A stretch of 40,172 nucleotides of DNA from a virus, in the UHGV virus genome UHGV-0207031; one strand, written 5' to 3'. Of the stretch, positions 10-29,754 are shown in pieces; position 1 is the first letter of the stretch; the number at the start of each line of letters is the position of its first letter. The position numbers and the translations under genes are program-made. A model generated the notes under the pieces. It did not search any database. It had not been told where the DNA came from and worked only from the letters and a program-made list of their open reading frames with translations.

Positions 10-714
10 ATGAAAACATTCGCAGATCGACTTAACGCGGCCATGAGTGCCGCTGGCATATCCCAGGGGCAGTTGGCTGAAAAAGTCGGCATATCCCAGC
101 CTGCAATTCAGAAAATGACTTCGGGCAAAACCGCAGGCAGCCGCAAGATGGTTGAGCTTGCCCATGCGTTGAACGTACGACCGGAGTGGCTAAGTTCTGG
201 GGTTGGATCAATGCAGGGTGAGTCACGCAAGGACTCTTCTATTCCACCTGAATCGGAATGGGGTAAGATTGACGCTTGGGATAGCAAAACGGATCTGCCA
301 GATGACGAGGTCGAAGTGCCATATCTGAAAGACATAGAACTTGCTTGTGGTGATGGTTCCTGCATTGACGATGACTACAACGGGTTCAAGCTTCGCTTTG
401 CGAAATCTACCCTGCGTAAAGTGGGGGCCCAAAAGGATAGCGTGCTTTGCTTCCCGGCATCCGGTAATAGCATGGAGCCAATGATCCCAGAGGGGACCAC
501 GGTAGCGATCAATACAAACGACAAAAAAATCGTTGATGGCAAGGTTTATGCGATCAGCCAGGACGGATGGAAGCGACTAAAATCCATTTACCGTGTTAGC
601 CCTACGCGCATTGTGATACGCAGCTTCAACTCTGACGAGTACCCTGATGAAGAGGCTGACATTGAAAACGTAGAGATACTCGGGCGCATGTTCTGGTCCT
701 CTACAATCTGGTGA
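10..714 (+). CDS. CI/C2-type prophage repressor (N-terminal XRE-type HTH, C-terminal LexA-like S24 autocleaving peptidase domain)
   Basis: 234-aa ORF. HTH segment GISQGQLAEKVGISQPAIQKM. S24 Ser motif GNSMEP and catalytic-Lys context DGWKRLK. Divergent from the cro-like gene at the window end and followed by an intrinsic terminator. Confidence 0.85.
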   Translation: MKTFADRLNAAMSAAGISQGQLAEKVGISQPAIQKMTSGKTAGSRKMVELAHALNVRPEWLSSGVGSMQGESRKDSSIPPESEWGKIDAWDSKTDLPDDEVEVPYLKDIELACGDGSCIDDDYNGFKLRFAKSTLRKVGAQKDSVLCFPASGNSMEPMIPEGTTVAINTNDKKIVDGKVYAISQDGWKRLKSIYRVSPTRIVIRSFNSDEYPDEEADIENVEILGRMFWSSTIW

Positions 715-740
715 TTAAACAAATAACCCTTCATAACCTA

Positions 741-763
741 ACCCGCTCCGGCGGGTTTTTTAT
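741..763 (+). terminator. Rho-independent terminator downstream of repressor gene
   Basis: acccgc-tccg-gcgggt stem-loop followed by ttttttatt. Confidence 0.6.
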
Positions 764-802
764 TACCTAAATCCTGCCAAACCCCATTCTTTACAAAATT
801 AA

Positions 803-888
803 ATTAATTTAGTTATCAGTCACATATAACTTTTGTGATGATAAATATAAATTAGGTTATTGCCATCAATCATAACTAAGGTTATCTT
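803..888 (+). promoter_or_regulatory. OL/PL region: operator ATAACtaagGTTAT (873-886, perfect) plus degenerate copies at 847-860, 826-839, 803-816; candidate PL -35 TTGCCA (860-865) / -10 TATCTT (883-888)
   Basis: Same 14-bp dyad ATAAC-N4-GTTAT as the three sites at 40108-40170. The operator overlaps the spacer/-10 of a sigma70-like promoter pointing into the early-left operon. Confidence 0.5.
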
Positions 889-1054
889 TAACCCATCAAA
901 ACAACACAGCGTTTTGGTCAGTCGAACGGCGCGACAGTAAACCCTGCGTCGGGAGCGCGGCGGGTTCAGGATGAACGGCAATGCTGCTCACAAGAGAATT
1001 ACAGATCGCTTTTGCGAGAGCGATGCGTAATTCAATCCTAACTAGGAAATATTC

Positions 1055-1147
1055 ATGAAAAACGTAGACGTGGTTCATCTGATAGGCGGCATCTTGATTA
1101 CTACACCATTAGCCCTGGTAATCCTGCGGTTCACAGTATTTTTCTGA
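1055..1147 (+). CDS. 30-aa hydrophobic peptide (MKNVDVVHLIGGILITTPLALVILRFTVFF), first ORF of early-left operon
   Basis: ATG preceded by AGGAAA 7 nt upstream. Single predicted transmembrane helix. Too short for the ORF track. Confidence 0.35.
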   Translation: MKNVDVVHLIGGILITTPLALVILRFTVFF

Positions 1148-1186
1148 TTAATAGCTGAAAGCATTCCTGCTTTCTTGAGGTGGCCC

Positions 1187-1366
1187 ATGAAGAACAGCAT
1201 CAAGTGCCCGGTATGCGGTCGTGACTTCGATCCGAGGATTCCGACCTGCCACATCAGCAGATATCACCAGGCCGCTAAGAATTGCGAGCTGGAGAAGATA
1301 CGCGATGCACGTCGGCAGCATTACGCGGCAGGTAATCAGTCCGCTAAATATTACCGCGCAATTTGA
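1187..1366 (+). CDS. small zinc-finger-like protein (C-x2-C-x12-H-x4-H)
   Basis: ATG at 1187 with GAGGTGG upstream. CPVCGRDFDPRIPTCHISRYH motif. Confidence 0.5.
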   Translation: MKNSIKCPVCGRDFDPRIPTCHISRYHQAAKNCELEKIRDARRQHYAAGNQSAKYYRAI

Positions 1367-1663
1367 AAGTTCCCGGCTAGCCGCTGCCACCCCACACAGA
1401 CGCGGCATACATCATCGGCGGAGTTATGTAACAGGTAACAGTGACGACTGAAAACCAACATTCAGCCCCGGTTTGTGCCGGGGCACACAATGGAATGTTT
1501 TGGGATTGGATGAATGCGCAGGCTGATGCGCGACCGATGTATAAACAGCGCTCATGGCAAGCAGTAACCAGTCTGCGCCTCAAGACAGAGTCACTGGTGG
1601 TGCGGGCGCTCCAACCAGTAAGCCGGAGATCAGCACCGGCCATCCAATCACCAAAGCATTTCA

Positions 1664-1685
1664 ACCAGCTCCCCAGGGGCTGACG
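1664..1685 (+). repeat. 22-bp perfect direct repeat copy 1 (ACCAGCTCCCCAGGGGCTGACG)
   Basis: Identical 22-mer recurs at 1899-1920. Each copy sits 25-35 bp upstream of an ATG. Confidence 0.9.
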
Positions 1686-1709
1686 TTAAGAACAACTTTC
1701 AACAAGGGT

Positions 1710-1880
1710 ATGACGATGTCCATAAATCAATCTTTTGCCAAAGAGTGTCGAGAAGAAGTTCGGTACTACCGTGAGCGGGCAGCGAATGCCAAGCGTAACG
1801 GCTGGGAGTGCTCTCGTGTCACTTACATCAAGTGCGCTCTTTTCAACCGCGCCAACGCCCGTAAATGGGCTTCGATGTGA
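1710..1880 (+). CDS. hypothetical small basic protein (56 aa); the frame is open from 1554, so the N-terminus may be longer
   Basis: ATG 1710 follows repeat copy 1. The upstream in-frame stretch is low-complexity S/A/P/G-rich. Confidence 0.4.
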   Translation: MTMSINQSFAKECREEVRYYRERAANAKRNGWECSRVTYIKCALFNRANARKWASM

Positions 1881-1898
1881 AACAGGTTAAGTTTTAAT

Positions 1899-1920
1899 AC
1901 CAGCTCCCCAGGGGCTGACG
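1899..1920 (+). repeat. 22-bp perfect direct repeat copy 2
   Basis: Identical to 1664-1685. Followed by RBS AGAGAGG and ATG 1943. Confidence 0.9.
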
Positions 1921-1942
1921 GTAAACAAACAGAGAGGTGGGT

Positions 1943-2308
1943 ATGGGGAACGTAAAAAGCTATACGGTCGATTACGACTGGAAGGCTGAGCTAAAGGTTG
2001 AGATAGACCACGACATCGTAACGGACGACGCACTTCGTGAAATAAACGAATTTTGGAGTAACCACGAGTGGCGTGAAAGCAACCATGGTCTTCTTAACGC
2101 AGTTTTGATCATGTTGGCAAGGCATGTGATGCCAATGGCGTATGAGCTTGGATACAACGCTCATGGCATTCGATCCCTGTTCGATTGGGATAAGGGTAAC
2201 GGTCAAGAGGGGTGGCCTCCGATGGATGGCACGCAAGGCATCAAGATAACGTCAATCGATGTCGATGGCGTGTTTGATGAAGACGATTTCACTGTTAAGG
2301 CCGCCTAA
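1943..2308 (+). CDS. hypothetical early protein (122 aa)
   Basis: ATG with AGAGAGG RBS. Ends inside the loop of an intrinsic terminator. Confidence 0.6.
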   Translation: MGNVKSYTVDYDWKAELKVEIDHDIVTDDALREINEFWSNHEWRESNHGLLNAVLIMLARHVMPMAYELGYNAHGIRSLFDWDKGNGQEGWPPMDGTQGIKITSIDVDGVFDEDDFTVKAA

Positions 2309-2322
2309 CAAGCGGCTTTTTT
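2300..2322 (+). terminator. Rho-independent terminator (gccgc-ctaacaa-gcggc-tttttt)
   Basis: Stem-loop plus T6. The stop codon of the upstream gene lies in the loop. Near-identical cassette at 2611-2633. Confidence 0.65.
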
Positions 2323-2348
2323 ACAGGGTAACTACAGAGGGTAAGGCG

Positions 2349-2435
2349 ATGGAAGACGAAATTGAAGAGTTTGACGAGCATCCGCAGGATGACATGAGCC
2401 AGTACCAGGATTATCCCTATGAATACGACTACTGA
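2349..2435 (+). CDS. 28-aa highly acidic peptide (MEDEIEEFDEHPQDDMSQYQDYPYEYDY)
   Basis: GAGGG RBS before the ATG. Strongly acidic, Tyr-rich. Overlaps the start of the next ORF. Confidence 0.25.
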   Translation: MEDEIEEFDEHPQDDMSQYQDYPYEYDY

Positions 2436-2619
2436 CACCAATCAGTGGTGTAGCCAGTTCCCAAAATGTAAAGGGTGCAAGCTTGATGCAGAGTGCATGG
2501 TGAAACCAGAGGAAATGTCTCTGGTGAGAGAGAATGGAAAGATTGTCGATCGATGGGCAATACGGACAACCGCCATGATTGCAAGAGAGCTTGAAAATCA
2601 GAAAAACAGAGCCGCTTAA
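2419..2619 (+). CDS. small Cys-rich protein (66 aa, C-x5-C-x2-C-x5-C)
   Basis: ORF ends in the loop of the terminator at 2611-2633. Confidence 0.5.
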   Translation: MNTTTDTNQWCSQFPKCKGCKLDAECMVKPEEMSLVRENGKIVDRWAIRTTAMIARELENQKNRAA

Positions 2620-2633
2620 CCAGCGGCTTTTTT
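2611..2633 (+). terminator. Rho-independent terminator (gccgc-ttaacca-gcggc-tttttt)
   Basis: Stem-loop plus T6. Homologous to the 2300-2322 cassette. Confidence 0.65.
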
Positions 2634-2765
2634 CATACCAAAACGGGTTCAAAGAGCCTGTTTCGTTATGACAACCGGCGGCCATCCACCGCCAGCATAT
2701 TTTCGCACAAGCGCAGAAGTCTTGTATTAACCGTTCCGTTCGCCGCGATAAGGCCAAGAGGATTT

Positions 2766-6693: not shown

Positions 6694-6714
6694 CGCTAAC
6701 CAAACGAATCACAA

Positions 6715-6739
6715 GGTCGCTATCGCGGCCTTTTTTATT
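6715..6739 (+). terminator. Rho-independent terminator after methylase gene
   Basis: ggtcgc-tatc-gcggcc followed by ttttttatt. Confidence 0.6.
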
Positions 6740-8754: not shown

Positions 8755-9002
8755 AATTGCGGGTAAAATAAAATCCACTTCTGAAAATTCCCTTTCTATA
8801 CAATCCCCTGACATGCCAATTCGATGTATGCAGGGGACACCATTCTATAGTTCGCCACTCTCCGCAGTAGTTCGCAAAATCCCTTGCACAGCAGGCTCTC
8901 AATAAAATACCAGTTCGCCATAGTTCGCAATAGAACGTTGACAGCCGCATACTTCGGCGGGTAAAAAACGAGTAAATGATTTTACCCACCGGAATTTTAC
9001 CC
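8749..9002 (+). promoter_or_regulatory. probable attP: core TGCAGGGGACACCA (8829-8842) with upstream TTCGAT; AGTTCGC[C/A]A repeats at 8849, 8869, 8912, 8922; GGGTAAAA at 8749, 8761, 8959 and inverted TTTTACCC at 8980, 8995 abutting int ATG
   Basis: The core matches the 3' end (T-loop remnant, acceptor, ACCA) of E. coli tRNA-Arg(CCU) argW as remembered. It lies about 160 bp upstream of, and co-oriented with, int (canonical P4-family arrangement). The repeat arrays flank it with 10/20-bp phasing. Confidence 0.55.
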
Positions 9003-10160
9003 ATGCTCACCATCAAACAGATCGACGCAGCAAAGCCGAAAGATAAACCGTACCGGCTGCTCGACAGCAACGGGCTGTACCTTTATGTGCCGGTTACCGG
9101 AAAGAAAGTCTGGCAACTGCGTTACAAGCTCAATGGTAAAGAGAAGGTTTTGACGGTAGGCAAATACCCGCTCATGTCATTGCAGGAAGCCAGAGACAAA
9201 GCTTGGCTTGCCAAAAAGGATGTGTCTGTCGGTGTCGATCCGGTAAAGGCCAAAAAACTGTCAGTCAAAGACAACTCGTTCGGCTCTATATACCAGGAAT
9301 GGTACGAGCACAAAAAACAGGTATGGTCAGAGGTATACAGCACCGAACTGTCACGTATGTTCCAGGATGACATTCTGCCGTTGATTGGCGTGATGGAGAT
9401 TCACGAGATAGAACCAATGCAGATACTGGAGGTGATACGTAGGTTCGAAGAACGTGGGGCAATGGAGCGGGCCAATAAGGCGCGTAGGCGGTGCGGAGAA
9501 GTATTCAGGTACGCGATAGTTACCGGGAGAGCGAAGTATAACCCGGCTCCTGACCTTGCTGATGCCATGAAGGGATACAGGAAGAAGAACTATCCTTTCC
9601 TTCCTGCTGACCAGATACCTGCCTTCAACAAAGCACTATCTGGCTTCTCTGGAAGTATCGTATCAAAGATTGCGACACAGGTTTTGCAGTACACGGTACT
9701 GAGGACAAAAGAACTCCGGTCAATGCAATGGTCGAACGTCGACTTTGAAACCAGGACGATTACGATCGCCGAAGATGTGATGAAGGGGCGTCGCCCTCAC
9801 CTTGTACCAATGTCAGATCAGGTCGTCTCTCTGCTTGAAATGCTGAAGCCTATAACGCAGCCGATATCAAGCTTCGTTTTCGCCGGGCGCAATGACAAAA
9901 CAAAGCCGATCAGTGAAAACGCAGTTCTACTGGTTATTCGCCAGATTGGCTATGAAGGATTGGCAAGTGGCCACGGTTTCCGTCACCAGTTCAGCACCAT
10001 AATGAACGAGCATGAATGGCCCGCAGATGCCATTGAGAAGCAACTTGCGCACGCTAACAGCGGCTCCATTCGTGGGATATACAATCATGCTCAGTACATG
10101 GATAAGCGTCGGGAGATGATGCAGTGGTGGGCAGACTGGCTTGATGAGAAGGCATCATAG
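9003..10160 (+). CDS. int: P4/CP4-57-family tyrosine integrase (DUF4102 N-terminal arm-binding domain plus catalytic domain)
   Basis: MLTIKQIDAAKPKDKPYRLLDSNGLYLYV is a canonical N-terminus. C-terminal H..R..H..Y catalytic region (GHGFRHQF...IYNHAQY). Confidence 0.9.
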   Translation: MLTIKQIDAAKPKDKPYRLLDSNGLYLYVPVTGKKVWQLRYKLNGKEKVLTVGKYPLMSLQEARDKAWLAKKDVSVGVDPVKAKKLSVKDNSFGSIYQEWYEHKKQVWSEVYSTELSRMFQDDILPLIGVMEIHEIEPMQILEVIRRFEERGAMERANKARRRCGEVFRYAIVTGRAKYNPAPDLADAMKGYRKKNYPFLPADQIPAFNKALSGFSGSIVSKIATQVLQYTVLRTKELRSMQWSNVDFETRTITIAEDVMKGRRPHLVPMSDQVVSLLEMLKPITQPISSFVFAGRNDKTKPISENAVLLVIRQIGYEGLASGHGFRHQFSTIMNEHEWPADAIEKQLAHANSGSIRGIYNHAQYMDKRREMMQWWADWLDEKAS

Positions 10161-10241: not shown

Positions 10242-12275
10242 CTAGATTATTGCTCTTCCAGTTTCAGACCCAATCCCACCATTATTGACTCTGATTTCAA
10301 TACTGCTGCCTGGAGTAATAACAGCTGGCACTGCACCTGCAAGTTTAAGATTGGAACTGTGTATTATAGTAAAGTTTGAAGACCCTCCATTTGTTAATGT
10401 TACATTTTTCATGCTAGCAGAGTTAACAAAACCTACTACATCAAAATGTGAACTTACTGAGACATTAATAATATCCCATTGAGAAACATCTATTGTTGAT
10501 GATGCTGATGTTATATTTAAAGTCCTCATCACTGTATCTACAACCAGACCATTTCCTGCGGTTACCTTGTCAGTTACATTGTTACTGTAGATGTTCGTGT
10601 CAGTGATTGGGAGGGTATTATCTCCATTCCTTACAGTATTATCATAAACCTCAATTGCAATTGTATCCTGGTTTATTACAACCCCCTGTGGAGTTGGTTG
10701 CGGATCTGAACCGTAATAGTATGTGGCTGAGCTAGGATCCTGAATATTGCAGCTATGTATTTTAACTCTTCCATTTTTAGCCAGAACAGTTATCCCCTCA
10801 CCACCAGGCATGATGATTGTCTCATCGTGAATTGAGCCTTGAGTGAAGTAATCACCAGATAATGGAGAGCCATCAATAACTATCTGAGGAACCGGTATTC
10901 TTTGAGACCCAAAAGCGTATAAATTGTCATGGATGGTAAATCTTGTGCATTTATTAAGGTAAATGCTTGTTCCTCCTGATTCAAAAAACTTATTATCATG
11001 AATATTAATCCATCCACCACCGTTAACAATTCTTATATGAGAGTTCTTTTCATTACTCTTAAGGACACCTCCTGGGAAAAATGGGATGTTATCAGAAACT
11101 GTAAGTCCATCAATTGTGTCAATATATATGTGATCAACGGTTGCATGCCCCTCATTTCCGCTAACAATCCAGTCAGCCATAGGGTACTGCATCCCAGGAG
11201 ACGGCTCGCTAAAGATAAATCTATCTACAGACTCACCATCCTCTGCCCCCTTTCCATAGTGACATCCAGATACAATCCATCTATTAACCATCTGCCCCCA
11301 TGCAGTTGCTGATGAGCCACCTACAGTAGTGCTAGGGATGATATGAATAAAGTTTTTATATCCTCGAACATCTTTAATATCAGATATGTTTCCCATTCTG
11401 GCATATGCAAGCTCAATAGCTGAAGTTATAGCTCTATCTGTTATAAAACTAACACCAGATATTTTAGTATTCATATAAATATCTGAGCTTGTAAGGAATG
11501 TGTCCCGACACACCCTTATGGTTCCATCTATAACACCACTTCCGCTAACTGTTACATTTTGTTTTTTTATCCAAATTCTTGTGAATTTTGTTGTTGTCCC
11601 ATACGGGAAAGTAATTTCTGCACCTTCGCCAAGTTCGTCTACCATCTTTTGTAGGTTGACGTCATTTAATGCAATATCAGAAAGATTATTGCTCCAGTTC
11701 CTTACATCTCCAATGTCATAACCATTAAGATACCCTACTGCTGACCAACTTGAATCAGGTGATGAGTTTGGAGGCACTGATACTGGCAAAGTTCCGTTAT
11801 ATCTATACCAATAACCATCATCATAATTTAAAAGCACCTGTTTTCTTTCTGTGATTGTAGCCCCGGTGTCAAATGTCTGCCCAAACATTCTGTAATAAAC
11901 TTCATATCTAAATGCTGACTTTGCATAAATTGAGAATTGGTCAGGGTCATACTTCAACACGTTGGCGATATAGTCGACTTGCGATCCATAGGCATCGTAG
12001 ATAGCCATGCTATGGCCCTGAACGGTGACAATTTTCACCAACTGTCCGTTGTATACGATTTTGCCGGCTGCGTTGATGATTAACGGCTGAGTAATCTGAA
12101 CGTGAGAGCCGTCCTCATTTTCAATGTATACGGGTATCTGATTGGCAGGATTAACCGGATCAGTATCAATCTGACCAATATAAATCCGACCATTAGCTAC
12201 TGCGCGAAATGTACGTGAATCAGTGAAGATAGGGCGAGGGTTAGACACAACCACGTTTGCAGTGATATCTGACAT
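10242..12275 (-). CDS. tailspike protein: P22-gp9-like N-terminal head-binding domain plus divergent beta-helix receptor-binding/glycanase domain
   Basis: N-terminus ([16 protein letters not shown]...[47 protein letters not shown]) matches P22 tailspike almost residue-for-residue as remembered. The remainder is AT-rich with a beta-helix-like repetitive pattern. Confidence 0.9.
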
Positions 12276-12335
12276 TTAGCTTTGCTCCAGGCGCAAGTAA
12301 TCCCCACAGGCGAGCTGCGGTAAGATATAGTTACA

Positions 12336-12397
12336 TACCAAAATGGTACGATTGTTGATTTATCCAGTAGGTTTTACGATGCCAGTCCACCCACTGG
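12336..12397. promoter_or_regulatory. divergent control region: palindrome TACCAaaaTGGTA (12336-12348), candidate mnt -35 TTGTTG/-10 TACGAT, dyad CCAGTccacccACTGG (12382-12397) over predicted +1
   Basis: Inverted repeats seen directly. GTCCACC resembles the half-site of the P22 mnt operator as remembered. Confidence 0.35.
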
Positions 12398-12410
12398 TGA
12401 GGCATCAAGG

Positions 12411-12665
12411 ATGTATAGCAAATACGATGAGGCGCAGTTCCACTTGAGGCTTACGCACGAACTACACGCGAAGATTAAGCAACGCGCGAAGATGAATAAC
12501 AGATCCATCAATGCAGAGATTGTGGCAACGATGGAGGAATCATTGTCAAAGCCATCACCGGTTAGCGGATACCGTGATGATGCAGAACGCGAGGCTGATT
12601 CAGTCTCAAGGGAGATACAGAAATTGGTTTTCGACAAACTGGCTGAGCACTACAGAAAGAAATAA
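12411..12665 (+). CDS. mnt: Mnt-like ribbon-helix-helix (Arc/MetJ family) repressor
   Basis: 84 aa. FHLRLTHELHAKIKQRAKMNNRSINAEIVATMEESLSKPSPVSGYRDDAERE...KLVFDKLAEHYRKK parallels P22 Mnt (..ALSKPSPVTGYRNDAERLADE..MVFDTLKDLYKK) as remembered. Confidence 0.8.
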   Translation: MYSKYDEAQFHLRLTHELHAKIKQRAKMNNRSINAEIVATMEESLSKPSPVSGYRDDAEREADSVSREIQKLVFDKLAEHYRKK

Positions 12666-12695
12666 TTGATTACACGCAGTGATGTATAGAAATAA

Positions 12696-13094
12696 ATGCT
12701 CTATTCTCTCCATCATTCGACTGTACAAATTTTTGGAATCAAGGCCGTGAAAAAATTAATCGCTGCAATTTTCTTACTATCCTCTTCTGCCGCATATGCC
12801 CAATGCATAGGTAGTAACGCAATGTCCACATGCTACGACAACAACGGAAACACATATCAAGTTAGCAGAATGGGCGGTATGACTACGGTTAATGGAAGAA
12901 ACTCGAATACCGGTTCATCATGGTCTCAAACATCTAACACGATTGGAAATTCCACCTACACAAATGGGCGTGCATCCAATGGTCAAACGTGGAATGAAAC
13001 GCAGACAAACATGGGCGGGACTAGAATGATTTATGGCCGTAACTCACAAGGTCAATCATATAGTCATACATGCAATCAATTCGGCTGTAACTAA
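12696..13094 (+). CDS. secreted small protein with cleavable signal peptide and three Asn/Gly/Ser/Thr-rich GR-x-S repeats flanked by Cys pairs
   Basis: KKLIAAIFLLSSSAAYA/Q signal peptide (alternative GTG start at about 12747). Mature part has C-x9-C at the N-terminus, C-x4-C at the C-terminus, and repeats NGRNSNTGSSWSQTSNT / NGRASNGQTWNETQTN / YGRNSQGQSYSHT. Confidence 0.7.
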   Translation: MLYSLHHSTVQIFGIKAVKKLIAAIFLLSSSAAYAQCIGSNAMSTCYDNNGNTYQVSRMGGMTTVNGRNSNTGSSWSQTSNTIGNSTYTNGRASNGQTWNETQTNMGGTRMIYGRNSQGQSYSHTCNQFGCN

Positions 13095-13095
13095 G

Positions 13096-13119
13096 AAAAA
13101 GCCCACCTAAGTGGGCTGT
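13096..13119 (-). terminator. intrinsic terminator oriented for minus-strand transcripts (gcccac-ttag-gtgggc-ttttt)
   Basis: Stem-loop with the T-run only on the minus strand. Lets plus-strand mnt-operon transcription continue and stops un-antiterminated antisense transcription. Confidence 0.5.
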
Positions 13120-13166
13120 GATACTACGAAGCTCGTGCTACAGTACAGAAAACTAAGGAGGATGGT

Positions 13167-13385
13167 ATGGAATTAACATTTTCAGTGATTACCATACTAT
13201 TGGTGTTGTTAGTGATGTCTGCCTGGAGGGCCGCCTCTTACCTGAAAAAGATTTCGGAGTCCAATGAGCTTGCTGTCAGATGCCTTGACGCTCATGAACT
13301 CTTACTAAGGAAAATGCAAAAAGAGCAGGAGCGACAAGGCGCAGACATTGAGACAATCAAAGATATTGCTGCCGATAGAAAATAG
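13167..13385 (+). CDS. small single-pass inner-membrane protein (72 aa) with cytoplasmic coiled-coil tail
   Basis: Strong RBS AAGGAGG. N-terminal TM helix ITILLVLLVMSAW. Charged helical C-terminus. Occupies the sieA/hkcC position of P22. Confidence 0.65.
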   Translation: MELTFSVITILLVLLVMSAWRAASYLKKISESNELAVRCLDAHELLLRKMQKEQERQGADIETIKDIAADRK

Positions 13386-13389
13386 TAAA

Positions 13390-15708
13390 TTACTCCTCAG
13401 CCTGCCCATTAAGCCAGCCTATTGCGCCAGCCCGACCAATCTGCCTGACTTCATCAGATGAGAGATGCCCGGCAAATCGCTTCCATGATGGGAGGTTTTC
13501 GACAGTTCGGCTAACAGTTGACTGATTTTTGGAGTTAGCTTTGATTAGTGCATTCTGAAATGCTGGATCAGCAAGTAAAGCATCGGCGGCTATTGATCGT
13601 GCTGGACGAGTCATTGCCCTGCCGGCTACGTTAGCCGCCGCTCCACCAAGAGCACCACCAATAGCCGCGCCAACAGGGCCGCCAACCATTGCTCCGAGAG
13701 AGCCACCGGCCACAGCAGCCCCCTTTTCAGTAGCCCCATGCAGGTGAGCTAAAACACCATTTTTTGAGTCAATTGCTTTAATTAACGTTCCGAGTCGGCC
13801 AGTGCTGATGGCCTCTTCATTGGCCCGGCGAATTCCAGATGAAACCTTATAGATATTACTCAGGTTCCGACGTGATTCTTTTGGCAGATACTGCATGACC
13901 CGGTTCAATGCGCCGCTTTTACGCGCCCCCTCATACCAGTCAACAAACCCTGGGATGCTCAATTGCTTCTCTTTGCGGGAGCCAAGCGTAAATACGTCAT
14001 TCAATGCAGAGGCAACAACCTCTTGCCGCATGTGCTGAGGGGTTGCTTCTATCAGTTTATCAAATGCCTGCACATTGCCTTTTCTCAGATTCTGAATGGC
14101 TGGAGACAACTTATTAGTGAACGTCCCGCTGAGGTCTTTCCCGAGCGCGGTAACCATGTGATCTTCGAGTTGCTTACGTTGAGACACAAGTCCCTTGGCG
14201 ACCCCCCACTTATCCCCCATGCCAAACTGCTGAGCAACTTTTTCCTGATCGCTGGTTATGGCTGAATATAACTGCTTGAGTTCGGCAGTTGTCTGGTCTT
14301 TAAATGGTCCTTGATTTTTACCGATTGCCGCTCCAATTTGTTTGCGAACATTATCGACTTGCCCATAAACCGGCTGTCTAGTTGTTTGCCACGAGCGATT
14401 CATGAAGGCATCAGGCAAATATTCTTTTTTCTCCTGAAGTGCGTTTAAAACCTTCTTCTCTGCAGTAGAGAGGTTTTCAACCCCTCCAACCTCTTTCGCT
14501 TTGGCTTGCAACATTGACAGGGTATTACTGGCGCTCATCTTAGTCGATTTTGGTATCGATGAACCTATCTCGTTATAAATCGCATCAGATCTAGTGCCGA
14601 GGTCATCAATTGCCTTCTGCGATTCTGCTTTAAACTTCTCTGACAACCCGACTTTGTTCGTCGTGCCGCCTGCCAGTCCGATCATGTCGTCAGCTTTCTG
14701 AGCAAGTTGGTTAATAGTTTCGTATTCTTTGGCGCGAAGTTGGCTTGCTGGCACGGATTTTAACCCCTGCTCAACAGCACGGTAAGTCTGGCTCTGGCTG
14801 TAGTGAGACGGCAATAGCGCCTCTTCCATGTCTAGATCTTTTGCGGCTTTAAGTATGGATTCCTGAGGTTTTATCTCTCCACCAAGAGACGCATAATCTG
14901 CACGATCAGCAGCGCGACCCACTGCTTGGGCCGATTGCTCCTGTGCCGCATCACTGGTGGCATTAACGCCAGCGTGCATAGCAGCATCTGCATCAGAAGC
15001 AACCTTTTGTGTGGGTGAAAGCCATTCTCGAGCGCTTTTGACAATCGGCCCGGCAACCTTCCCAGCAACTGCTGATGCCGCATGTGCAACTCCACTCCCT
15101 GCAGTGCCAATGGCAAGGTTCTTTGCCAGATCACCCTGCTGACCTTCCCCACTACTCTGAGCCAATGCTCCAGGAACGTTCTCTGCCAGCATTTGAGCAG
15201 CTTTAGTCCCTACTCGTTCAGCAAGACCCGCCCCCTTAACTGCAGCTGATTCTAGTCCAGTAGGCAAAAGATATGGAAGCACCTCACCAGTTATCTGTCC
15301 ACCGACTGTCTTAGGCTTCATACTATCCGGCATTGTAATTCGCGGCGCCGGCTGGTATGTCCCGTCGCCGATACCCATTTTGTTCAACGCCCACACCCCA
15401 GCACTGGAAACCGCATCAGCCATTTCTGCTGGGATATTTAGTACTCCCACACCAGCCTGAGCAATGCCCTTACCAACATCAACAGCTGAGTTACCAAGAT
15501 CTGAAAAGAATCCCTGCCCTTGCGGATGCATGGGCTTAGATTGCTGACTATTTGACATTACCTGTTGATCTACAGCCTGAGTATCTTGCCCTGCTTGCTC
15601 TGCGGTCGCAGATTGCCCAGCAAAATACTCATCAATAGCCGATCCAATATCCTCAGTGCTTGTTCCTTCTGGGAATGTGAATGTCTTACCGTTGGCTGTA
15701 ACTTTCAT
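13390..15708 (-). CDS. ejection/injection protein (P22 gp16 position), 772 aa, Ala/Gly-rich
   Basis: Last gene of the ejection-protein trio. Composition and synteny. Confidence 0.7.
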   Translation of the reverse strand: MKVTANGKTFTFPEGTSTEDIGSAIDEYFAGQSATAEQAGQDTQAVDQQVMSNSQQSKPMHPQGQGFFSDLGNSAVDVGKGIAQAGVGVLNIPAEMADAVSSAGVWALNKMGIGDGTYQPAPRITMPDSMKPKTVGGQITGEVLPYLLPTGLESAAVKGAGLAERVGTKAAQMLAENVPGALAQSSGEGQQGDLAKNLAIGTAGSGVAHAASAVAGKVAGPIVKSAREWLSPTQKVASDADAAMHAGVNATSDAAQEQSAQAVGRAADRADYASLGGEIKPQESILKAAKDLDMEEALLPSHYSQSQTYRAVEQGLKSVPASQLRAKEYETINQLAQKADDMIGLAGGTTNKVGLSEKFKAESQKAIDDLGTRSDAIYNEIGSSIPKSTKMSASNTLSMLQAKAKEVGGVENLSTAEKKVLNALQEKKEYLPDAFMNRSWQTTRQPVYGQVDNVRKQIGAAIGKNQGPFKDQTTAELKQLYSAITSDQEKVAQQFGMGDKWGVAKGLVSQRKQLEDHMVTALGKDLSGTFTNKLSPAIQNLRKGNVQAFDKLIEATPQHMRQEVVASALNDVFTLGSRKEKQLSIPGFVDWYEGARKSGALNRVMQYLPKESRRNLSNIYKVSSGIRRANEEAISTGRLGTLIKAIDSKNGVLAHLHGATEKGAAVAGGSLGAMVGGPVGAAIGGALGGAAANVAGRAMTRPARSIAADALLADPAFQNALIKANSKNQSTVSRTVENLPSWKRFAGHLSSDEVRQIGRAGAIGWLNGQAEE

Positions 15709-17087
15709 TATTCCACCGTGAATCGTATGCCGGATTTAGAGGTATGCGTTGCAGGCTGCTGTGGTGCTTGCTGTTGTTGCTGATTTTGTTCGGGTTGTTG
15801 GTCCTGATTGTTGGCCGCTGTAGACACAACTAACGCGTCATATACTCGCCCAGACTGACCGCGAAGGGAGTTGTATTGCCCCTGCATTTTTCGCATTTTT
15901 GTTTTGGTAGCATCTGGAGAATCACCAGGTTGCGGTAAGTACATTTTCGAATACTCCTGCATTTCAGGAAGAGTAATCGCCGCGCCTGTTTCTGGTCGCA
16001 AAATTGCGTAAAGCGCATCCCTGGCATTAACCATGTACTGCTGTTCTGCTGGAGATAGGCTGAGGTTTGCTATAGTTCCATCACCAAGAGAGCGGTTAAT
16101 TAATGCTACGCGCTTAGGGTCAATGGTTTTTCCAAGCTCATTCATGGAGTCCATTGAATCCTTTAGGCGCAAGGCAAAACCTGCTGCTTTCTTAGATCCT
16201 TCGTTAGCCTTGTCAATGATCGACTGAGCCTGAGGAAGGCTGATTGGCTTAATGCCGTCGCCATTGATGGGCTGGTTAATTTTCCCGGCCTCTTCGCTAC
16301 CGTCCGTGTAGTATTTCGTCACCGAACCATCAGGATTGGTTTCAACCTTCATCAGTTTTTTGGCTGACGGATTGATGCCAGCAGCGGCGGCAAATGTTGC
16401 TGCTGATTCAGGATCTGACTTCAGCAATTGCGCATACTGGTTATAGTTTTGCATCGCTGCAGTTGGTGCATTCGCTGCGCGAATGGAGTTTTCACGACTG
16501 ATGTTTTGCCCGCGAATAGTGTTAGCTTCTCCGGCTTTATTACTGCGCACTTGCTCCTGCAATTTAGCAACATCATTTTGCCGTTGCGCGCGGTCATTCT
16601 GAACGCCGTAATAGTCCTTTGCACCCAGAGCGCTTAACCCAACGGCATCAACAATATTTGCCAGGCCATTAGGATCTTGCTGGAATTGCTGAGTAATATC
16701 ATCAGCAGATGATCCCACAGAGCTAAGAACACCGGCATGTTTAACTGCGGCCAACTGCACCGCCTGAGGATTTCCGGTAGCCATAGCAACTCGCAAATCT
16801 CGAGCGGCATTACCAAGAGACATCTGATGTTGCTCATCCTGAAATCCTATACCAGCTTTGATGGCGGCCATCTGACCTGGGTATTTGGCAACAAGTGCCG
16901 ACATCTTTTGCGGATCACCAAAAGATGCCTGCCAGTCAGACTTGAAAGCGTTCAGTGCTTCTTGCTGTGCTGCGGCCTGTTCATTAGCCATACGCGCTTG
17001 CTGAATCTCCTGCATGCCACCGTATGCCTTTAGCCCCTGCAAGAATCCACTGCCACCGCTGTAATCAATGGGGTTAACAATCGCCAT
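15708..17087 (-). CDS. ejection protein (P22 gp20 position), 459 aa
   Basis: Synteny. Gln/Ala-rich C-terminus. Confidence 0.7.
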
Positions 17088-17096
17088 ATACCCTCC

Positions 17097-17744
17097 TTAA
17101 AACCAGCTTTTAACAATATTCCCAATACCGGTACCAAATTGCTGACCAGCGCTTGTACCTGAAAGGAAACCAAGTCCACTGGTTAGCGCATTCCCATTGG
17201 CGAGGTAATTACCGGCTTTTGCCGCACCGATCTGGGCCATATTGTCGCCGTAGCTATTAGCGTAATTACCAGCAGCAGCATTGGACGCGCCAGCCGCTGA
17301 TAGGCCAACGTTGGATAGCCCCATAAGTTGCTGATACATATTGTTCTGTTGGTCAGTCATCATGTTCAGGTAGTTCTGCCCAAGCTGAGGCGCGATGGAT
17401 GAGAGCATATTCCCGGTAGCCGTAGAACCAAGTCCGCCGGTTGCCTCTGCAGCGTTCAGTCCCTGATAGCGAGCCTGATCTGATAACTGCTGATACTCAG
17501 GGCTGTTGAAATAATTTGTCAGTAGAGCATTCCTGTCGATCGGCTTACCAGCGATTCCCTGCAACCCAGCCAACCCGGTTTTACCTGCTGTAAGCCATGG
17601 AAGCAATCTTTCCTGCTGCTCTCGATAAATCTGTAGGTTTGTCGCATTGGATTGGTTTGCGGCATTCTTTTGTGCGTCTGCCGCCTGATTTGCACCAGTG
17701 ATAGAGCCGACGATATTGCCAATGCCTTTGGTGATGCCGCTCAT
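17097..17744 (-). CDS. ejection protein (P22 gp7 position), 215 aa
   Basis: Synteny. Gly/Ala/Asn-rich, typical of the gp7 class. Confidence 0.65.
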   Translation of the reverse strand: MSGITKGIGNIVGSITGANQAADAQKNAANQSNATNLQIYREQQERLLPWLTAGKTGLAGLQGIAGKPIDRNALLTNYFNSPEYQQLSDQARYQGLNAAEATGGLGSTATGNMLSSIAPQLGQNYLNMMTDQQNNMYQQLMGLSNVGLSAAGASNAAAGNYANSYGDNMAQIGAAKAGNYLANGNALTSGLGFLSGTSAGQQFGTGIGNIVKSWF

Positions 17745-18112
17745 TGCGCGTACCTCTTCATTAAAATAAGTTCTCCGCGGCTATCGTCTATGTACTCAAC
17801 GACACCACGCCATGATTCTGTGAACCCAAACTTTCTAGCCAGATTGCAGACCTGCTTATGCTCAATGCGGATCGGCGCGTGAATCTCCCGGTTACCGATT
17901 AGCGCCAGCACATCAGCAACGGCATCCCGGCATCGGTGACGTTCACCCGGCTTCATAGCCATATGCAGATCAACGTGGTCACCAAAATCCATGCAGACAA
18001 AGATGCCGACACCGTTCCAGAGCAGATAGTCACCTTCAACCAGAGGGAATGACGGCACACCCCACAGGCGCATTAACCCCTGCCCGGTGAGAGCATCGAT
18101 GTTCATTAGCAT
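17741..18112 (-). CDS. P22 gp14-position protein (123 aa)
   Basis: Lies between needle and ejection genes. 4-nt overlaps with both neighbours. Confidence 0.55.
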   Translation of the reverse strand: MLMNIDALTGQGLMRLWGVPSFPLVEGDYLLWNGVGIFVCMDFGDHVDLHMAMKPGERHRCRDAVADVLALIGNREIHAPIRIEHKQVCNLARKFGFTESWRGVVEYIDDSRGELILMKRYAQ

Positions 18113-18114
18113 GG

Positions 18115-18984
18115 TTACTGTTCCGCGATTATCTTGATGGTTGTAGCAGTGAATGCCGCGCCGTTTGCCTGAATGGTGATGGTGCTGCCATTGGTGGCAA
18201 GGAAACCGCCATGATCGACACTGAAGAACGTGGCAAGAAGAATATTGTCTGTAGCCGTTGCTGCGTTACGGCTGGCTACAAGCGTGTCTGGAACTGCTCC
18301 GGAGAAGGTTAGCTGCATTGACCGGTTTGTCGTTCCTCCCGGGTAACTGCCAATCATCGACAACTTGAAATTCAGCGTCTTGTTCTCGTTGTAGACGGTC
18401 AGCTTGTCCGTTGTTGTGTTGAAGAACGGGAGCAATGTTCCTGATGATGGAGTCAACGCTTTCAGCATCGTGATCAGGTTGGTAGCAGTGGTCGGGATAA
18501 CCTGCGATATTCCGGTGTAAAGGACCTCTGATTTCTTGCGTGTAGTGGCATATTCCAGAGCATCAATGCGCGTTTCGTGGTCAGCTAGCTCAGCTTCGTT
18601 AGCCGTTATTCGCGTCTCGTGATCAGCCAACTCTGTTTCAATGTCGATAACCTTATCAAGAAGGTAGTCAACATCATTGCGCAGTACATCAATCTTACCT
18701 TCAGCCGTCGTCAGTCGTACATCGAGTAACTGAATAGCTTGGGTGTTTGCGGTAATTCTTCCCTCGTGATCGGCAAGAGTTACATCCTGCTCATCGTTCT
18801 TAACCTGAGCATCGTAAGCACCTTGACCAGCACCATTAGCTTTATCTGCGACTTTGGTGAAGTCCTGAGCTTGAGAAAGAATGTATGTTTCGTAAGCCCG
18901 GCTAACCCCAACAGGAAGAGATGATGCGTTAATGCCAATTGCCGTAACATTAACGGGTTCCTTTAGAGACGGATCAGCCATCAC
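18115..18984 (-). CDS. tail needle protein (P22 gp26 family) with C-terminal knob extension
   Basis: N-terminus MADPSL...ANGAGQGAYDAQVKNDEQDV and ADHE-repeat trimeric coiled coil match gp26 as remembered. 289 aa implies an Sf6/HK620-type knob. Confidence 0.85.
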   Translation of the reverse strand: MMADPSLKEPVNVTAIGINASSLPVGVSRAYETYILSQAQDFTKVADKANGAGQGAYDAQVKNDEQDVTLADHEGRITANTQAIQLLDVRLTTAEGKIDVLRNDVDYLLDKVIDIETELADHETRITANEAELADHETRIDALEYATTRKKSEVLYTGISQVIPTTATNLITMLKALTPSSGTLLPFFNTTTDKLTVYNENKTLNFKLSMIGSYPGGTTNRSMQLTFSGAVPDTLVASRNAATATDNILLATFFSVDHGGFLATNGSTITIQANGAAFTATTIKIIAEQ

Positions 18985-20399
18985 TCAATCCTTATCTGTG
19001 CGCCTGATAATGTGACAGGTGACTTGGTGATAACCCTGATTTTGAAGCCGACATTTTTACGGATGCGACCGACACGTTTCCAGATGACACGCTTGTCGTA
19101 AACGAATGGCGCGTTCTGCTCAATCATTTGCTCTCGACCATAGTTGATTCCGTCAGTGGTGGCAGAAAGGAATAACCGGTCAGCGTATTGGGCAACTCCG
19201 GTTGATGATTCAACTTCGAAGTCGAACACCCTTGCGTTATCAGCTTTGAAAAGTGGCGTGAATAACAGGTGCTCCTGCTGCTTTTCATACTGGCTGGAGA
19301 TGTCGAACTGAAGAGCGCCCTTCACAGCGTCCAGTTTGTCTCCGCAGGTGATCGTGTTTCCTTCGTACATGAAGTCGATAGCGCGGTAGACGTCGTCATA
19401 TAGTCCTGTTTTCAGAATGCACCACTGCGGACCGTTCTGTGATGCTGTTCCGTCATATACCAGCACGTGTCTCGGCAGGTGAATCATCAACAATTCGTGA
19501 GAGTCAAAGCGCAGAGATTCCATAACGGATGTTGCCAGTTCATCAGCGGTGTATTCGCGAAGAATCTTTTCAACGCTTGCTGTGGCGATCGGAGTTGATC
19601 GGCCAGAGTCGATGATATATACCGAAGGCGCACCGGTTGCCGGGTTGCTGACGATGGCGTAAGCGTCCATGAATACGCACTTGCAGAATGTCCCGGCGAT
19701 ACCTTTTGGAACCATGTATGCAGGGTTAGCAACGTAGAGCGCCGCGCCGACTGTCGATGTGCCTGTCAGCGTGAAAAACTCAATGGTTGATGACCCAAAG
19801 CAGACGATAAAGTCTCGCCATGTACCGATTCCGATGATTCCATCTGGCTGTGACTCAGCGCGATATTCAGCACTGTACCGGTCAGGATGCGATTCATCTT
19901 CAAGGTCAGTAATAAACCATGAATCTGAGTTATCCTTCGCCCATGCGTATCGGCCACGCAAACGGGTTACATCACGCGCAGACCCCAATTCGTATTGCGT
20001 ATATCCAGTATCAACAGGCCAGTTAGCAATCGTCTTTGTGGTGCCGTCGTAACGGTATTCGACGACGTTTCCGTTAACACAAACAGCCTGAGACGTGCGA
20101 CCGTGGGCCAGCGAAACGCGAGATGTACCCGCAACATCACCCACCGCCGAATCAGATCGATACAGCTTGCCTCCCATGACGCGATACACGGCATTCTGAG
20201 AGGTGTTGTACTCTGCACCGCGAGATGTACCGGCGACATCTGATATCTTCGTTACACCCGGGAAGGAGCGCAGATAACCGTTGCTGTTGAGCACCTCTTT
20301 CGGCGTAGCAAGAAGATTGACTGGGAGATAGTCGATGTAGTCGGCGTTGCGGAAGTCTTTGCCGACTCCTTTCATTAAAGGTAATTGCTGAATCGGCAT
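18981..20399 (-). CDS. tail accessory / hub protein (P22 gp10 family), 472 aa
   Basis: Same length as P22 gp10. Synteny between gp4 and the needle. Confidence 0.75.
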   Translation of the reverse strand: MPIQQLPLMKGVGKDFRNADYIDYLPVNLLATPKEVLNSNGYLRSFPGVTKISDVAGTSRGAEYNTSQNAVYRVMGGKLYRSDSAVGDVAGTSRVSLAHGRTSQAVCVNGNVVEYRYDGTTKTIANWPVDTGYTQYELGSARDVTRLRGRYAWAKDNSDSWFITDLEDESHPDRYSAEYRAESQPDGIIGIGTWRDFIVCFGSSTIEFFTLTGTSTVGAALYVANPAYMVPKGIAGTFCKCVFMDAYAIVSNPATGAPSVYIIDSGRSTPIATASVEKILREYTADELATSVMESLRFDSHELLMIHLPRHVLVYDGTASQNGPQWCILKTGLYDDVYRAIDFMYEGNTITCGDKLDAVKGALQFDISSQYEKQQEHLLFTPLFKADNARVFDFEVESSTGVAQYADRLFLSATTDGINYGREQMIEQNAPFVYDKRVIWKRVGRIRKNVGFKIRVITKSPVTLSGAQIRIE

Positions 20400-20407
20400 T
20401 TACTCAC

Positions 20408-20890
20408 CTATGAATTTGGTACATCACCGTCAATTGGTGGCAAGTCGCCAGGGTAATAGCGATCCGATGTGAACACGTCATACTTGTTTCCCTGCCCAAC
20501 CGGGAAGTCTCCCAGGCGGCGCATGGAAGGAACAACCAACGTGTCAGTCAGCAGTGCATCGTATGCCTTGGACGCGTTTGTCTCGATTCGTGGAGTTGGC
20601 TCAATGCCATAATCCGACATCATGCGGAGAAGAAGTTGGTAGCCAACAGCATGCTTGTATTTTCGTGGCAGACCAGAGTCATCATCAGGTAGCGGCTCTT
20701 CGTCATCAGCAGAGAAGATGTACCCGATTTCACCCGGGTTAATTAGCCACTCGGCCATCATATCTTCTAAATCGACTACGCCGTCCTCTACTGATTGCGG
20801 TTCTACGTCTGTAAGCGTTGCGTTAGAGGCAACTGCAAACTTCCGGAGGGAAAAGAGAACAATCTCACCCTTGGTCAGCGTCGTTGACAT
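20408..20890 (-). CDS. tail accessory / head-completion protein (P22 gp4 family), 160 aa
   Basis: Size and synteny. Confidence 0.7.
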   Translation of the reverse strand: MSTTLTKGEIVLFSLRKFAVASNATLTDVEPQSVEDGVVDLEDMMAEWLINPGEIGYIFSADDEEPLPDDDSGLPRKYKHAVGYQLLLRMMSDYGIEPTPRIETNASKAYDALLTDTLVVPSMRRLGDFPVGQGNKYDVFTSDRYYPGDLPPIDGDVPNS

Positions 20891-21050
20891 TATCTGCCGC
20901 CTTGCGTCCGCGCTTGGTTGCTGGCTTCAGATCGTCAACTGAGGCGACAAAGCCTAGCTTTTGGTAAATAGGAAAGTCTTTTTCGACGATAACAGCCTGA
21001 ACGTGACCGGCCTCGTTATCAGCGGTAAGGAATACGCTCATGCGATCCAT
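20865..21050 (-). CDS. small hypothetical protein (61 aa) between coat and gp4
   Basis: ATG at 21050 with GAGGTGA RBS, placed just after the coat terminator. Confidence 0.4.
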   Translation of the reverse strand: MDRMSVFLTADNEAGHVQAVIVEKDFPIYQKLGFVASVDDLKPATKRGRKAADNVNDADQG

Positions 21051-21055
21051 GTTCA

Positions 21056-21092
21056 CCTCAAAAAAAGAAAGGGGCCGAAGCCCCTTGTGATT
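21056..21092 (-). terminator. strong intrinsic terminator after coat gene (aaggggc-ttcg-gcccctt + T7)
   Basis: 7-bp GC-rich stem, tetraloop, T-run on the minus strand. Confidence 0.75.
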
Positions 21093-21102
21093 GCCGTTTC
21101 GA

Positions 21103-22383
21103 TTACGGATTACCGAAGAACTGACCACCCATGTGTGGATTGAAGCACACGTAAGCCGGCAGCAAGTCGAAACGCATTTTCTGAACGTTGGCGTCGCCGT
21201 CAGCGTATTTGTGTACGCGAATGGAGAACCCTTCGTAGGTTGCGACAGCGGAGTCGATGCTGTTCAGTTTCGGCAGCGGGATGGTGCCAAGACCGCAGAA
21301 GAATTTGTTGTAGAACAGGTTCGGCTTCATGGTCTGGCTGGCGGTGCCGATCACAGTAACAGCGTCACCTGCTACAACCTGGCGGCTAACTGCGTTGTAT
21401 TGCTGCTGTGGTGCTGCATCGTAAATCGGAACGCCTGACAGGGTTACAGTTACCTGTCCACCGGCGGTAGAGTTTGCGTCCTGCAGAACGGTTGCCGTGA
21501 AGCTGATCGGGGTTGAGCCGTTATACAGTGCTTGTTTGCTCTGCTGGTTCAGCCAGAAGGTGTTGGTGAACTTAATCTGGTCGCCAGCTTTCAGGAGGCC
21601 GGTGACAGATGCCGTTGCGCCAGCTAGCGTTACGGTAAACTGGTAGGTGTCTTTAACCGCAATATAGGTAACGGTTGGGTTTGCCTGGACGGTCAAGGTG
21701 CCACCGAAAGCACCCTGAGAACGTGAAGCCAGCCCATTGGACATCAGAGCGCGGATGCCACCGAAGTTACCGGAGATTTGCGCATCTTCCCACGCAGTCT
21801 GAATCAGCTTGTCAGAGCCATGCAGACCAGACTGCGCATCAGCCAGGCGCTGAGCAGACCATGGGTCCATAACAGCGTAGTTTTCACCTTCGTTGACACC
21901 CAAATCCTTCAGGAATGACGCAGTTTGCGCTACATCAGACCATTTGTTGATCGGGGTGTTTGGGCTGCCGAGAGAGAGAGCGCCGTTGTTCATCATGAAT
22001 TTGGCTAGCTCAGTCTCCAGATCGGTGACGATACGTTGACGCACTGGCATCAGGATTTCATCCAACTGATTAAGCTTAATAGCTTCTTCCAGTTGGCCGT
22101 ATTCCACTGCGACGGTGATGTAGTTACCGACACGGCCAGTTGCTTTACCTGATACCAGGTTGTTTTTGGTCTGACCGGAAATATCACCGGTAGCAGTACG
22201 CAGAGATGAGAACTGATGCGGGCGCTTGAAACTTACGCTATCACCAGTGCTGGAGTTGATTTCACCTGCCAGCAACTGACGGTCAACGGTTTTAGCCAAC
22301 ACCAGGTCAGACATAAAGCCCGGCAGGAATTTCTTCAGGACGATCTGACTGACGTTGCTGTCGAGGTTGTTAGTAGTAGCCAT
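21103..22383 (-). CDS. major capsid (coat) protein, P22 gp5 family
   Basis: 426 aa. Follows the scaffold gene. Strong terminator downstream. Confidence 0.85.
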   Translation of the reverse strand: MATTNNLDSNVSQIVLKKFLPGFMSDLVLAKTVDRQLLAGEINSSTGDSVSFKRPHQFSSLRTATGDISGQTKNNLVSGKATGRVGNYITVAVEYGQLEEAIKLNQLDEILMPVRQRIVTDLETELAKFMMNNGALSLGSPNTPINKWSDVAQTASFLKDLGVNEGENYAVMDPWSAQRLADAQSGLHGSDKLIQTAWEDAQISGNFGGIRALMSNGLASRSQGAFGGTLTVQANPTVTYIAVKDTYQFTVTLAGATASVTGLLKAGDQIKFTNTFWLNQQSKQALYNGSTPISFTATVLQDANSTAGGQVTVTLSGVPIYDAAPQQQYNAVSRQVVAGDAVTVIGTASQTMKPNLFYNKFFCGLGTIPLPKLNSIDSAVATYEGFSIRVHKYADGDANVQKMRFDLLPAYVCFNPHMGGQFFGNP

Positions 22384-22394
22384 TTATGGTTCCT

Positions 22395-23285: not shown

Positions 23286-23298
23286 TGATTACTCCTGA

Positions 23299-26879: not shown

Positions 26880-27339
26880 TGTTCAACTCCTTAATTCGAC
26901 GTTCAATCTCCTCATCGGATAAATCGGAAACTGATTGCTTAACCTCTTTCTTCTCTGCAAGTCCAAGGTCACGTGCGATAATATTAGCGTTCAGCAAGTC
27001 AGCAGCCGCACCTGAGAATTTCTGATCGTAAATAACCTTCTCCGCTCGCGAGACGACCCCTAACAAATCTTCATTGCTGCGGTAGTTTCTCCACGTGTCG
27101 TCACTTATATCCAGGAACAAGCAAAGACCGGTAAGAGTCATTGCTCTCATCTTGGCTACCGGCTCTTGCGTGACTTCTCCCTGATATGCGAACGGTTTCA
27201 TTTCCCATAACGGATTGTCTTCCACCCACTGGAAGTATTCACAGCAGGCAGACCAAAGCTGATCACCAGATTCAAACTTTGGATTTCGCCCATGACTACT
27301 GCGGGCCTCCCAGAATCGGTTTCCCTTTGGAGCTGCCAT
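26839..27339 (-). CDS. terminase small subunit (P22 gp3 family)
   Basis: [24 protein letters not shown]...[25 protein letters not shown] matches P22-group gp3 as remembered. Confidence 0.8.
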
Positions 27340-27343
27340 AGTT

Positions 27344-28054: not shown

Positions 28055-28159
28055 ATCCCACTCAAGACCCAGCTTAGAAAGATACTCTTTAGCTTCCTCC
28101 CTGCTTCTGAGGAGAATAATGTCAGCGCAATTGAAAAGTGGGACTTGATATCTTGGTGG

Positions 28160-29666: not shown

Positions 29667-29671
29667 GAATT

Positions 29672-29747: not shown

Positions 29748-29754
29748 AGATACG

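Follow-up and report, generated by a model that had tools for sequence, protein, structure and literature searches.

Putative HK022-type put antiterminator RNAs in both early operons of a P22-like mosaic phage genome

The phage genome and its early promoters

The window analysed here is the whole 40,172-nt stretch of viral genome UHGV-0207031, and is a nearly complete genome of a P22-like temperate phage, opened at cI. Its features are collected in Table 1. The early-left operon follows cI on the plus strand, the virion genes, the large ORFs in the position of replication genes, the cII-like gene and cro lie on the minus strand, and PR with its operators forms the extreme end of the window. 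Two tRNA genes are found at 29595-29666 and 29675-29747 (minus strand), adjoined at 29757-29833 (also minus) by an isrJ-like Hfq-binding sRNA (Rfam RF01393; it scores 58.9 bits where the gathering score is 37); this group (29595-29833) sits between the ORF blocks 28160-29100 and 29849-30538.

Table 1. Coordinates of the genes, regulatory sites and RNA elements in the window
Feature	Position	Strand	Remarks
cI	10-714	+	HTH and S24 peptidase domains
Terminator 3′ of cI	740-763	+	
Early-left operon	from the cI terminator down to 8976-10160	+	8976-10160 is an integrase-sized ORF
OL, three operator sites	826-839, 847-860, 872-885		Matches to the motif ATAAC-N4-GTTAT
PL promoter	860-888	+	TTGCCA (860-865), 17-nt spacer, TATCTT (883-888)
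5′ leader hairpin	897-916	+	CAAAAC...GUUUUG (fold), between transcript start and putL
putL antiterminator RNA (putative)	920-989	+	HK022 positions A3-C72
Post-put hairpin	996-1033	+	Outer stem 996-1002/1027-1033; inner stem 1005-1012/1017-1024; loop UGCG
Orphan insertion	1040-1175	+	136 nt, GC about 42%; carries the 30-aa ORF
59-aa Cys/His-rich (zinc-finger-like) protein gene	1187-1366	+	ATG at 1187
Hairpin GCCCCGGU-UUGU-GCCGGGGC	1465-1484	+	boxB position relative to the N-type leader
Structured non-coding element, N-leader homologue	1492-1662	+	91-94% identity
56-aa basic protein gene	1710-1880	+	
Intrinsic terminator after the DUF2528 gene	2297-2322	+	-15.1 kcal/mol, U6 run
Intrinsic terminator after ral	2608-2633	+	-13.1 kcal/mol, z -5.2, U6 run; corresponds to a terminator annotated in HK639
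Intrinsic terminator upstream of the xis/int region	6713-6738	+	GC stem, U6 run
Virion ORF block	10242 to 29100	-	In sequenced relatives, tailspike, DNA-transfer, head and portal genes by annotation
Large ORFs	36393-38276, 38388-39248	-	Position of replication genes
cII-like gene	39713-39429	-	
putR antiterminator RNA (putative)	39762-39829	-	Between cro and the cII-like gene
cro	40071-39853	-	
PR promoter	40105-40133	-	TGGACA, 17-nt spacer, TATCTT; under the OR operators

Matches to the operator motif numbered 24, against 11.4 expected. The OL site that overlaps PL (872-885) reads ATAACTAAGGTTAT; the other two are half-conserved, weaker operator copies, and three perfect copies are found at the PR end (40108-40170). 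PL itself, which had been predicted from the sequence under its operator, is present as described, and together with the operator it is nearly base-for-base the annotated 'putative pL' of phage HK639. Alignment with HK022 places the predicted start of its transcript at about A895. PR has the same -10 hexamer and the same spacing as PL. The N-terminal HTH domain of the cI product (first 60 residues) is about 92% identical to that of HK639 CI, whereas the C-terminal domains are only 29% identical. On the minus strand a promoter-like match, ATGGCA-17-TATCAT (866-838), lies inside OL and points towards cI; it is a consensus match only, with no gene downstream on that strand.

An earlier note on this DNA, made from the letters alone, had counted at least three intrinsic terminators in the early-left operon ahead of int. 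The three that it named hold up as GC stems with U6 runs, and all lie downstream of the putL element described next.

The put elements

A megablast search with window positions 700-2700 matched a feature of the HK639 record annotated as 'putL-like antiterminator RNA'. In a local BLAST alignment, window 923-990 and HK022 28240-28307 were identical at 64 of 68 bases (94%); since the HK022 segment lies directly 3′ of the HK022 PL and 5′ of nun, it is the canonical putL. Numbered as in the cryo-EM study (PMC9378689), HK022 put position n corresponds to window position 917+n. The element thus located sits between PL and the leader hairpin at 1005-1024, to which the earlier note had drawn attention; that was the wrong structure, the put element being at 920-989, and a second copy, putR, had been overlooked.

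The covariance model R1 was built from 24 put sequences, leaving out those of the window, and was run unfiltered over the 40-kb window. It found only two sites: putL at 918-991 on the plus strand (91.5 bits, E 1.7e-19) and putR at 39829-39762 on the minus strand (71.8 bits, E 5.5e-15), the next best match scoring 8.8 bits. The putL and putR of HK022 itself score 96.8 and 71.2 bits under the same model. The window putR, read from the minus strand 3′ of cro as CCGAACGGCCCGGTATATGGTCGGGTGCCCGGCGTGGTCAAGGTTGACTGTCAATGGTGCACG, differs from HK022 putR at 4 positions in 68 nt and is identical to the putR of two other loci in our collection (L073 and L079). The predicted start of PR is about 270 nt away, the same distance as that between PR and putR in HK022 (PMC9378689). 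Each early transcript therefore has one put copy, putL after PL and putR after PR.

Mutation of residues 3-7, A9, U28, G35, G45 or A64 inactivates HK022 put (PMC9378689). Read against this list of mutants, the alignment shows all of these residues kept in the window putL (A9 = A926, U28 = U945, G35 = G952, G45 = G962 and A64 = A981), and the window carries the compensatory change of A5-U17 to U5-A17.

Covariation was scored on an alignment of 33 distinct putL and putR sequences against the pairing derived from cryo-EM, consisting of duplexes 3-7:15-19 and 10-14:30-34, which together form the pseudoknot, and stem II at 36-72. With this pairing 97.1% of the cells are paired, and in 14 of the 22 pairs both partners have changed. 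The covariation score was 0.344, compared with 0.110 in shuffles (none of 500 reached 0.344) and at most 0.089 in a control with slid partners. The rows from the window pair everywhere except at A3/A19, and 15 of the 33 sequences leave that position unpaired too. The published put structure is supported by this covariation.

A pattern scan of IMG/VR located the putL motif in 90 viral contig stretches, many of which proved, under a looser pattern, to carry a putative putR on the opposite strand as well. The 93 putL loci considered below comprise the 90 IMG/VR stretches, the HK022 record and the window, and the motif stands behind at least eight different operator/promoter types among them. The 2022 structure paper refers to 'ten known put sequences' (PMC9378689); against that number the 93 loci would support a curated model.

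Rfam gave no match in the leader at the gathering or at a permissive threshold, although putL is 94% identical to its HK022 counterpart; the null is uninformative because put is not in Rfam, and without an Rfam family annotation pipelines and first-pass readers will keep missing put RNAs. The earlier note had proposed folding 900-1060, and when 895-1060 was folded as one piece the z-score was -1.7 and the minimum-energy fold missed the put fold. Because put is pseudoknotted, thermodynamic folding alone would not have revealed it.

Small early-left genes and a leftover N-type leader

The earlier note had set a 30-aa hydrophobic peptide and a zinc-finger protein at the head of its account of the operon. 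Both turn out to be side issues, belonging to an orphan insertion and to the accessory genes. The 30-aa ORF does exist (1055-1147, plus strand, with AGGA 8 nt upstream of the ATG). The insertion that carries it is lower in GC and replaces five bases, GATAG, of relatives that share both flanks; put-bearing relatives without it directly join ...AACCT-GATAG-TGAGGTGG. Phage, E. coli, viral-contig, genome and metagenome collections gave no match to the ORF or the insertion in searches by DNA, tblastn, exact-product and degenerate-codon patterns. A Kil-like or type I toxin-like product had been suggested; Pfam, PHROGs, NCBIfam and the sequence collections held no toxin-family match or homologue. The ORF may be a small membrane protein gene of the moron type, a view without support from conservation.

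The Cys/His-rich ORF is real, with a different start from that first given: not 63 aa from the TTG at 1175 but 59 aa from the ATG at 1187, a start that all homologues share and that has GAGG ahead of it here. Its motif, which had been read with an x12 spacing, is C-x2-C-x11-H-x4-H (C7, C10, C21/H22, H27). Homologues measure 54-83 aa and conserve C7, C10, C21, H22 and H27, an extra conserved Cys thus adjoining the first His of the family. The protein matches PHROG 20899, Pfam matches are all below threshold (zf-Di19 scores 17.8 bits against a cut-off of 27.5), and an AlphaFold model shows a hairpin and helices with a pLDDT of only 60. It belongs to a small enterobacterial prophage family. The gene is found 3′ of N in ETEC4091 and in locus L010.

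No N or Nun was found among the early-left ORFs by Pfam, PHROGs or NCBIfam, and when four N types and HK022 Nun were compared by phmmer and tblastn with all 947 ORFs, the best E-value was 0.2. The earlier statement that no N-like antiterminator is recognisable is borne out by these searches. N is short and very divergent, and a wholly new type in the window could still escape sequence search. E. coli matches over window 1176-1657 labelled 'antitermination protein N' were considered and rejected as N; they are pieces that flank it, window 1495-1657 matching the non-coding leader upstream of N and 1176-1320 a zinc-finger ORF that lies directly 3′ of N and has no annotation.

In N-type lambdoid phages and prophages (ETEC4091, IME10, Stx2c phages) the DNA from nutL to the N start codon is unannotated, and the leader homologue at 1492-1662 matches it at 91-94% identity; in IME10 this leader type precedes a different N. 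The window element folds into a long-range stem (z -5.4) formed from GGAAUGUUUUGGG... and ...CCAAAGCAUUUC. Two mechanically called ORFs, 1441-1683 and 1554-1709, had been listed as possibly coding; they overlie this conserved structured element, and very probably neither is a gene. In lambda the structured leader ahead of N is a hairpin processed by RNase III. The window element resembles such leaders in being a long stem just upstream of an early-left gene, in addition to its identity with those of other phages, and differs in that the gene it precedes is that of the 56-aa protein and not N. An N-type leader without N looks to be what an exchange of N and put modules has left behind.

Comparable stems of the leader type (GGAAUGUUUUGGG...CCAAAGCAUUUC) occur 3′ of putL in loci L016 and L020, with a related stem in L090. 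In L077 (IMG/VR 2579778715_000004), the DNA about 60-130 nt 3′ of putL appears, read by eye, to encode ...VTCTGRQKVRGRSIPLV, which resembles the C-terminal end of a lambda-type N with no N-terminal part; this remnant is consistent with put having replaced nutL and most of N. In L049 (IMG/VR 2901296437_000004) a 290-aa ORF whose start lies 106 nt 3′ of putL has the C-terminal sequence NHAHRRDPRKKWS, close to the HK022 Nun C-terminus NHAHQRNPNKKWS, the protein being about 2.5 times the length of Nun. Positions 1410-1440 were also considered as a decayed PL/OL1 of a lambda-like phage, a similarity too weak to claim.

The 56-aa protein has five homologues of 54-86 aa. Its gene follows the leader in the place of N and it carries an Arg/Lys-rich stretch, REEVRYYRERAANAKRNGW; moreover, the hairpin at 1465-1484 (-19.2 kcal/mol, no U tract) and the leader stand in the same relative order as boxB and leader in N-type phages. 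One might thus read the protein as an unrecognised N-like factor acting at this hairpin, which we regard as very improbable. The window sequence has no boxA, GCTCTT(T)A, upstream of the hairpin, and the same hairpin is found 3′ of the zinc-finger gene in L069, a locus without the leader. The protein shows no similarity to any N or Nun tested, and two complete put RNAs already account for readthrough. Furthermore, in L010 and L012 genes of the 56-aa family lie two or three genes downstream of a genuine N (Pfam N_peptide, N36), and on this co-occurrence the 56-aa ORF was ruled out as a cryptic N. Since both the zinc-finger and the 56-aa genes also stand beside genuine N genes, they are not N substitutes; both are ordinary accessory genes of the early-left operon.

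Predicted readthrough of the early terminators, and related phages

We estimate a probability of about 0.9 that both early operons use HK022-type put RNA antitermination and not an N protein. In the window this reading is based on sequence identity, structure-preserving covariation, the positions of promoters and terminators, and the absence of N and Nun; binding to the β′ domain and readthrough are carried over from work on HK022. Transcription from PL would produce a short leader hairpin and then the 70-nt putL RNA, predicted to fold with a pseudoknotted stem I of triplex type at its 5′ side, followed by a long stem II. As in HK022, the folded RNA would bind in cis to the zinc-binding domain of β′ of its own RNA polymerase and stay bound, suppressing pausing as well as intrinsic and Rho-dependent termination for many kilobases. 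In this way putL would carry polymerase past the three terminators of Table 1 to xis and int, and putR would do likewise for the PR transcript after cro.

Three routes of escape from these terminators had been offered by the earlier note: an unrecognised protein, a put-like RNA or Q-independent means. It is the put-like RNA that is borne out, by the 94% identity and the R1 match, and not the other two. Three terminators without N are explained by put, so an unknown antiterminator need not be invoked, and the apparent puzzle is resolved by a known mechanism. That mechanism has been known since the 1990s, and the structure was solved in 2022. The putL and putR of HK022 come from the work of the Weisberg and King laboratories, with the cryo-EM structure in PMC9378689.

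In two details the window putL departs from HK022. The -10-like NANNAT hexamer is said to be identical in all known putL and has been proposed to cause a sigma-dependent pause at +23 to +28 (PMC9378689). In the window it is AACCCT instead of AACCAT, a variant common to at least six other viral contigs, and, counted from the predicted start, it falls at about +48 to +53, putL beginning about 25 nt after that start as against +3 in HK022. With the hexamer altered and the element displaced, the sigma-dependent pause may be absent there. The same two departures could be taken to mean that the put copies are relics, the terminators being leaky or passed by other means. We consider this scarcely probable, as the invariant positions and the helices are all intact in both copies, the variants found in the window recur in independent contigs, and no alternative antiterminator is at hand for three canonical terminators.

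Under the preferred reading of active put RNAs, the hairpins on either side of putL also deserve description. The 5′ leader hairpin has the form CGAAAC/GUUUCG or CGAGAC/GUCUCG at the same place in relatives, which amounts to compensatory changes. The post-put hairpin is a 15-bp interrupted structure (-17.4 kcal/mol, z -4.5), and the 8-bp stem with a UGCG loop reported earlier at 1005-1024 is its inner part, correctly seen; because it lacks a U tract, it is not a terminator. Hairpins of this type lie directly 3′ of putL at 26 of the 93 loci, with loops UGCG, UACG, CACG, UUCG or UCCG and one stem pair changed from G-C to A-U. The zinc-finger gene comes next in 14 of the 26 and unrelated sequence in 11; since it precedes differing downstream sequence, the hairpin belongs with putL and not with the zinc-finger gene, and it is a conserved companion of putL.

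Both flanking hairpins thus show compensatory changes and travel with putL across different promoters and downstream genes, and neither is described in PMC9378689 or in the HK639 and HK022 records. That they (the second YNCG-capped) are functional accessories of put is possible, if rather unlikely; they would then serve as folding insulators, or as a processing site freeing the put RNA to ride with polymerase, and for the post-put hairpin itself these two roles are guesses. The stability of that hairpin, its conservation (the compensatory pair and YNCG-type loop variants) and its company with putL might even suggest that it is itself the antitermination element, which is hardly credible given its absence from 67 of the 93 putL loci, HK022 among them, its lack of similarity to put or boxB, and the finding that the HK022 put RNA of about 70 nt suffices alone in purified systems (PMC9378689).

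Antitermination by the two put RNAs themselves would make the window one more case of the HK022 mechanism, already known, set in a new mosaic genome. As in HK022, both elements are 94% identical to their counterparts with the same helices and critical residues, putL comes right after PL and putR between cro and cII, and there is no N gene. Unlike HK022, whose virion genes are HK97-like, the window has P22-like virion genes; its immunity region is HK639-like, no nun lies 3′ of its putL, a 23-nt leader hairpin precedes putL, and the hexamer differs as described. The window shows mosaic exchange: its immunity region is of HK639 type, its put RNAs are of HK022 type and its virion genes of P22 type, and an N-type leader is left over.

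With lambda N/nut the window has in common the task of letting polymerase read processively through the early terminators of both the PL and the PR operon, and a homologue of the leader between nutL and N. It differs in having neither N protein nor boxA: the effector would be the nascent RNA, with no recognisable phage antitermination protein.

HK639 shares the nearly identical PL and operators, the near-identical cI DNA-binding domain and the 5′ half of putL, GGTCAGTCGAACGGCGCGACAGTAAACC (GenBank NC_016158 annotation), and differs in a divergent stem II as well as in the cI C-terminal domain. The right operons differ too. In HK639 an 'M3-like RNA' is annotated after the cII-like gene (37910-37969, or 1711-1770 of our stretch L104), whereas the window has an HK022-type putR, and model R1 detected no standard putR in the HK639 stretch downstream of pR (L104); from this HK639 seems to have another right-operon element than the window and HK022. 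A 2011 paper by King et al. reportedly treats put-like RNAs, that of HK639 among them.

A 20-nt repeat, CAGCTCCCCAGGGGCTGACG, occurs at 1666-1685 and 1901-1920 (plus strand) as a 7-bp hairpin with a 3-nt loop, in each case just upstream of a gene start. Its GGGGCTGACGGYAAA part also precedes genes in HK639, where it comes right after putL, and in L006, L010-L013, L018, L066, L079 and L098; the repeat may represent a conserved junction, or else an element of translation initiation.
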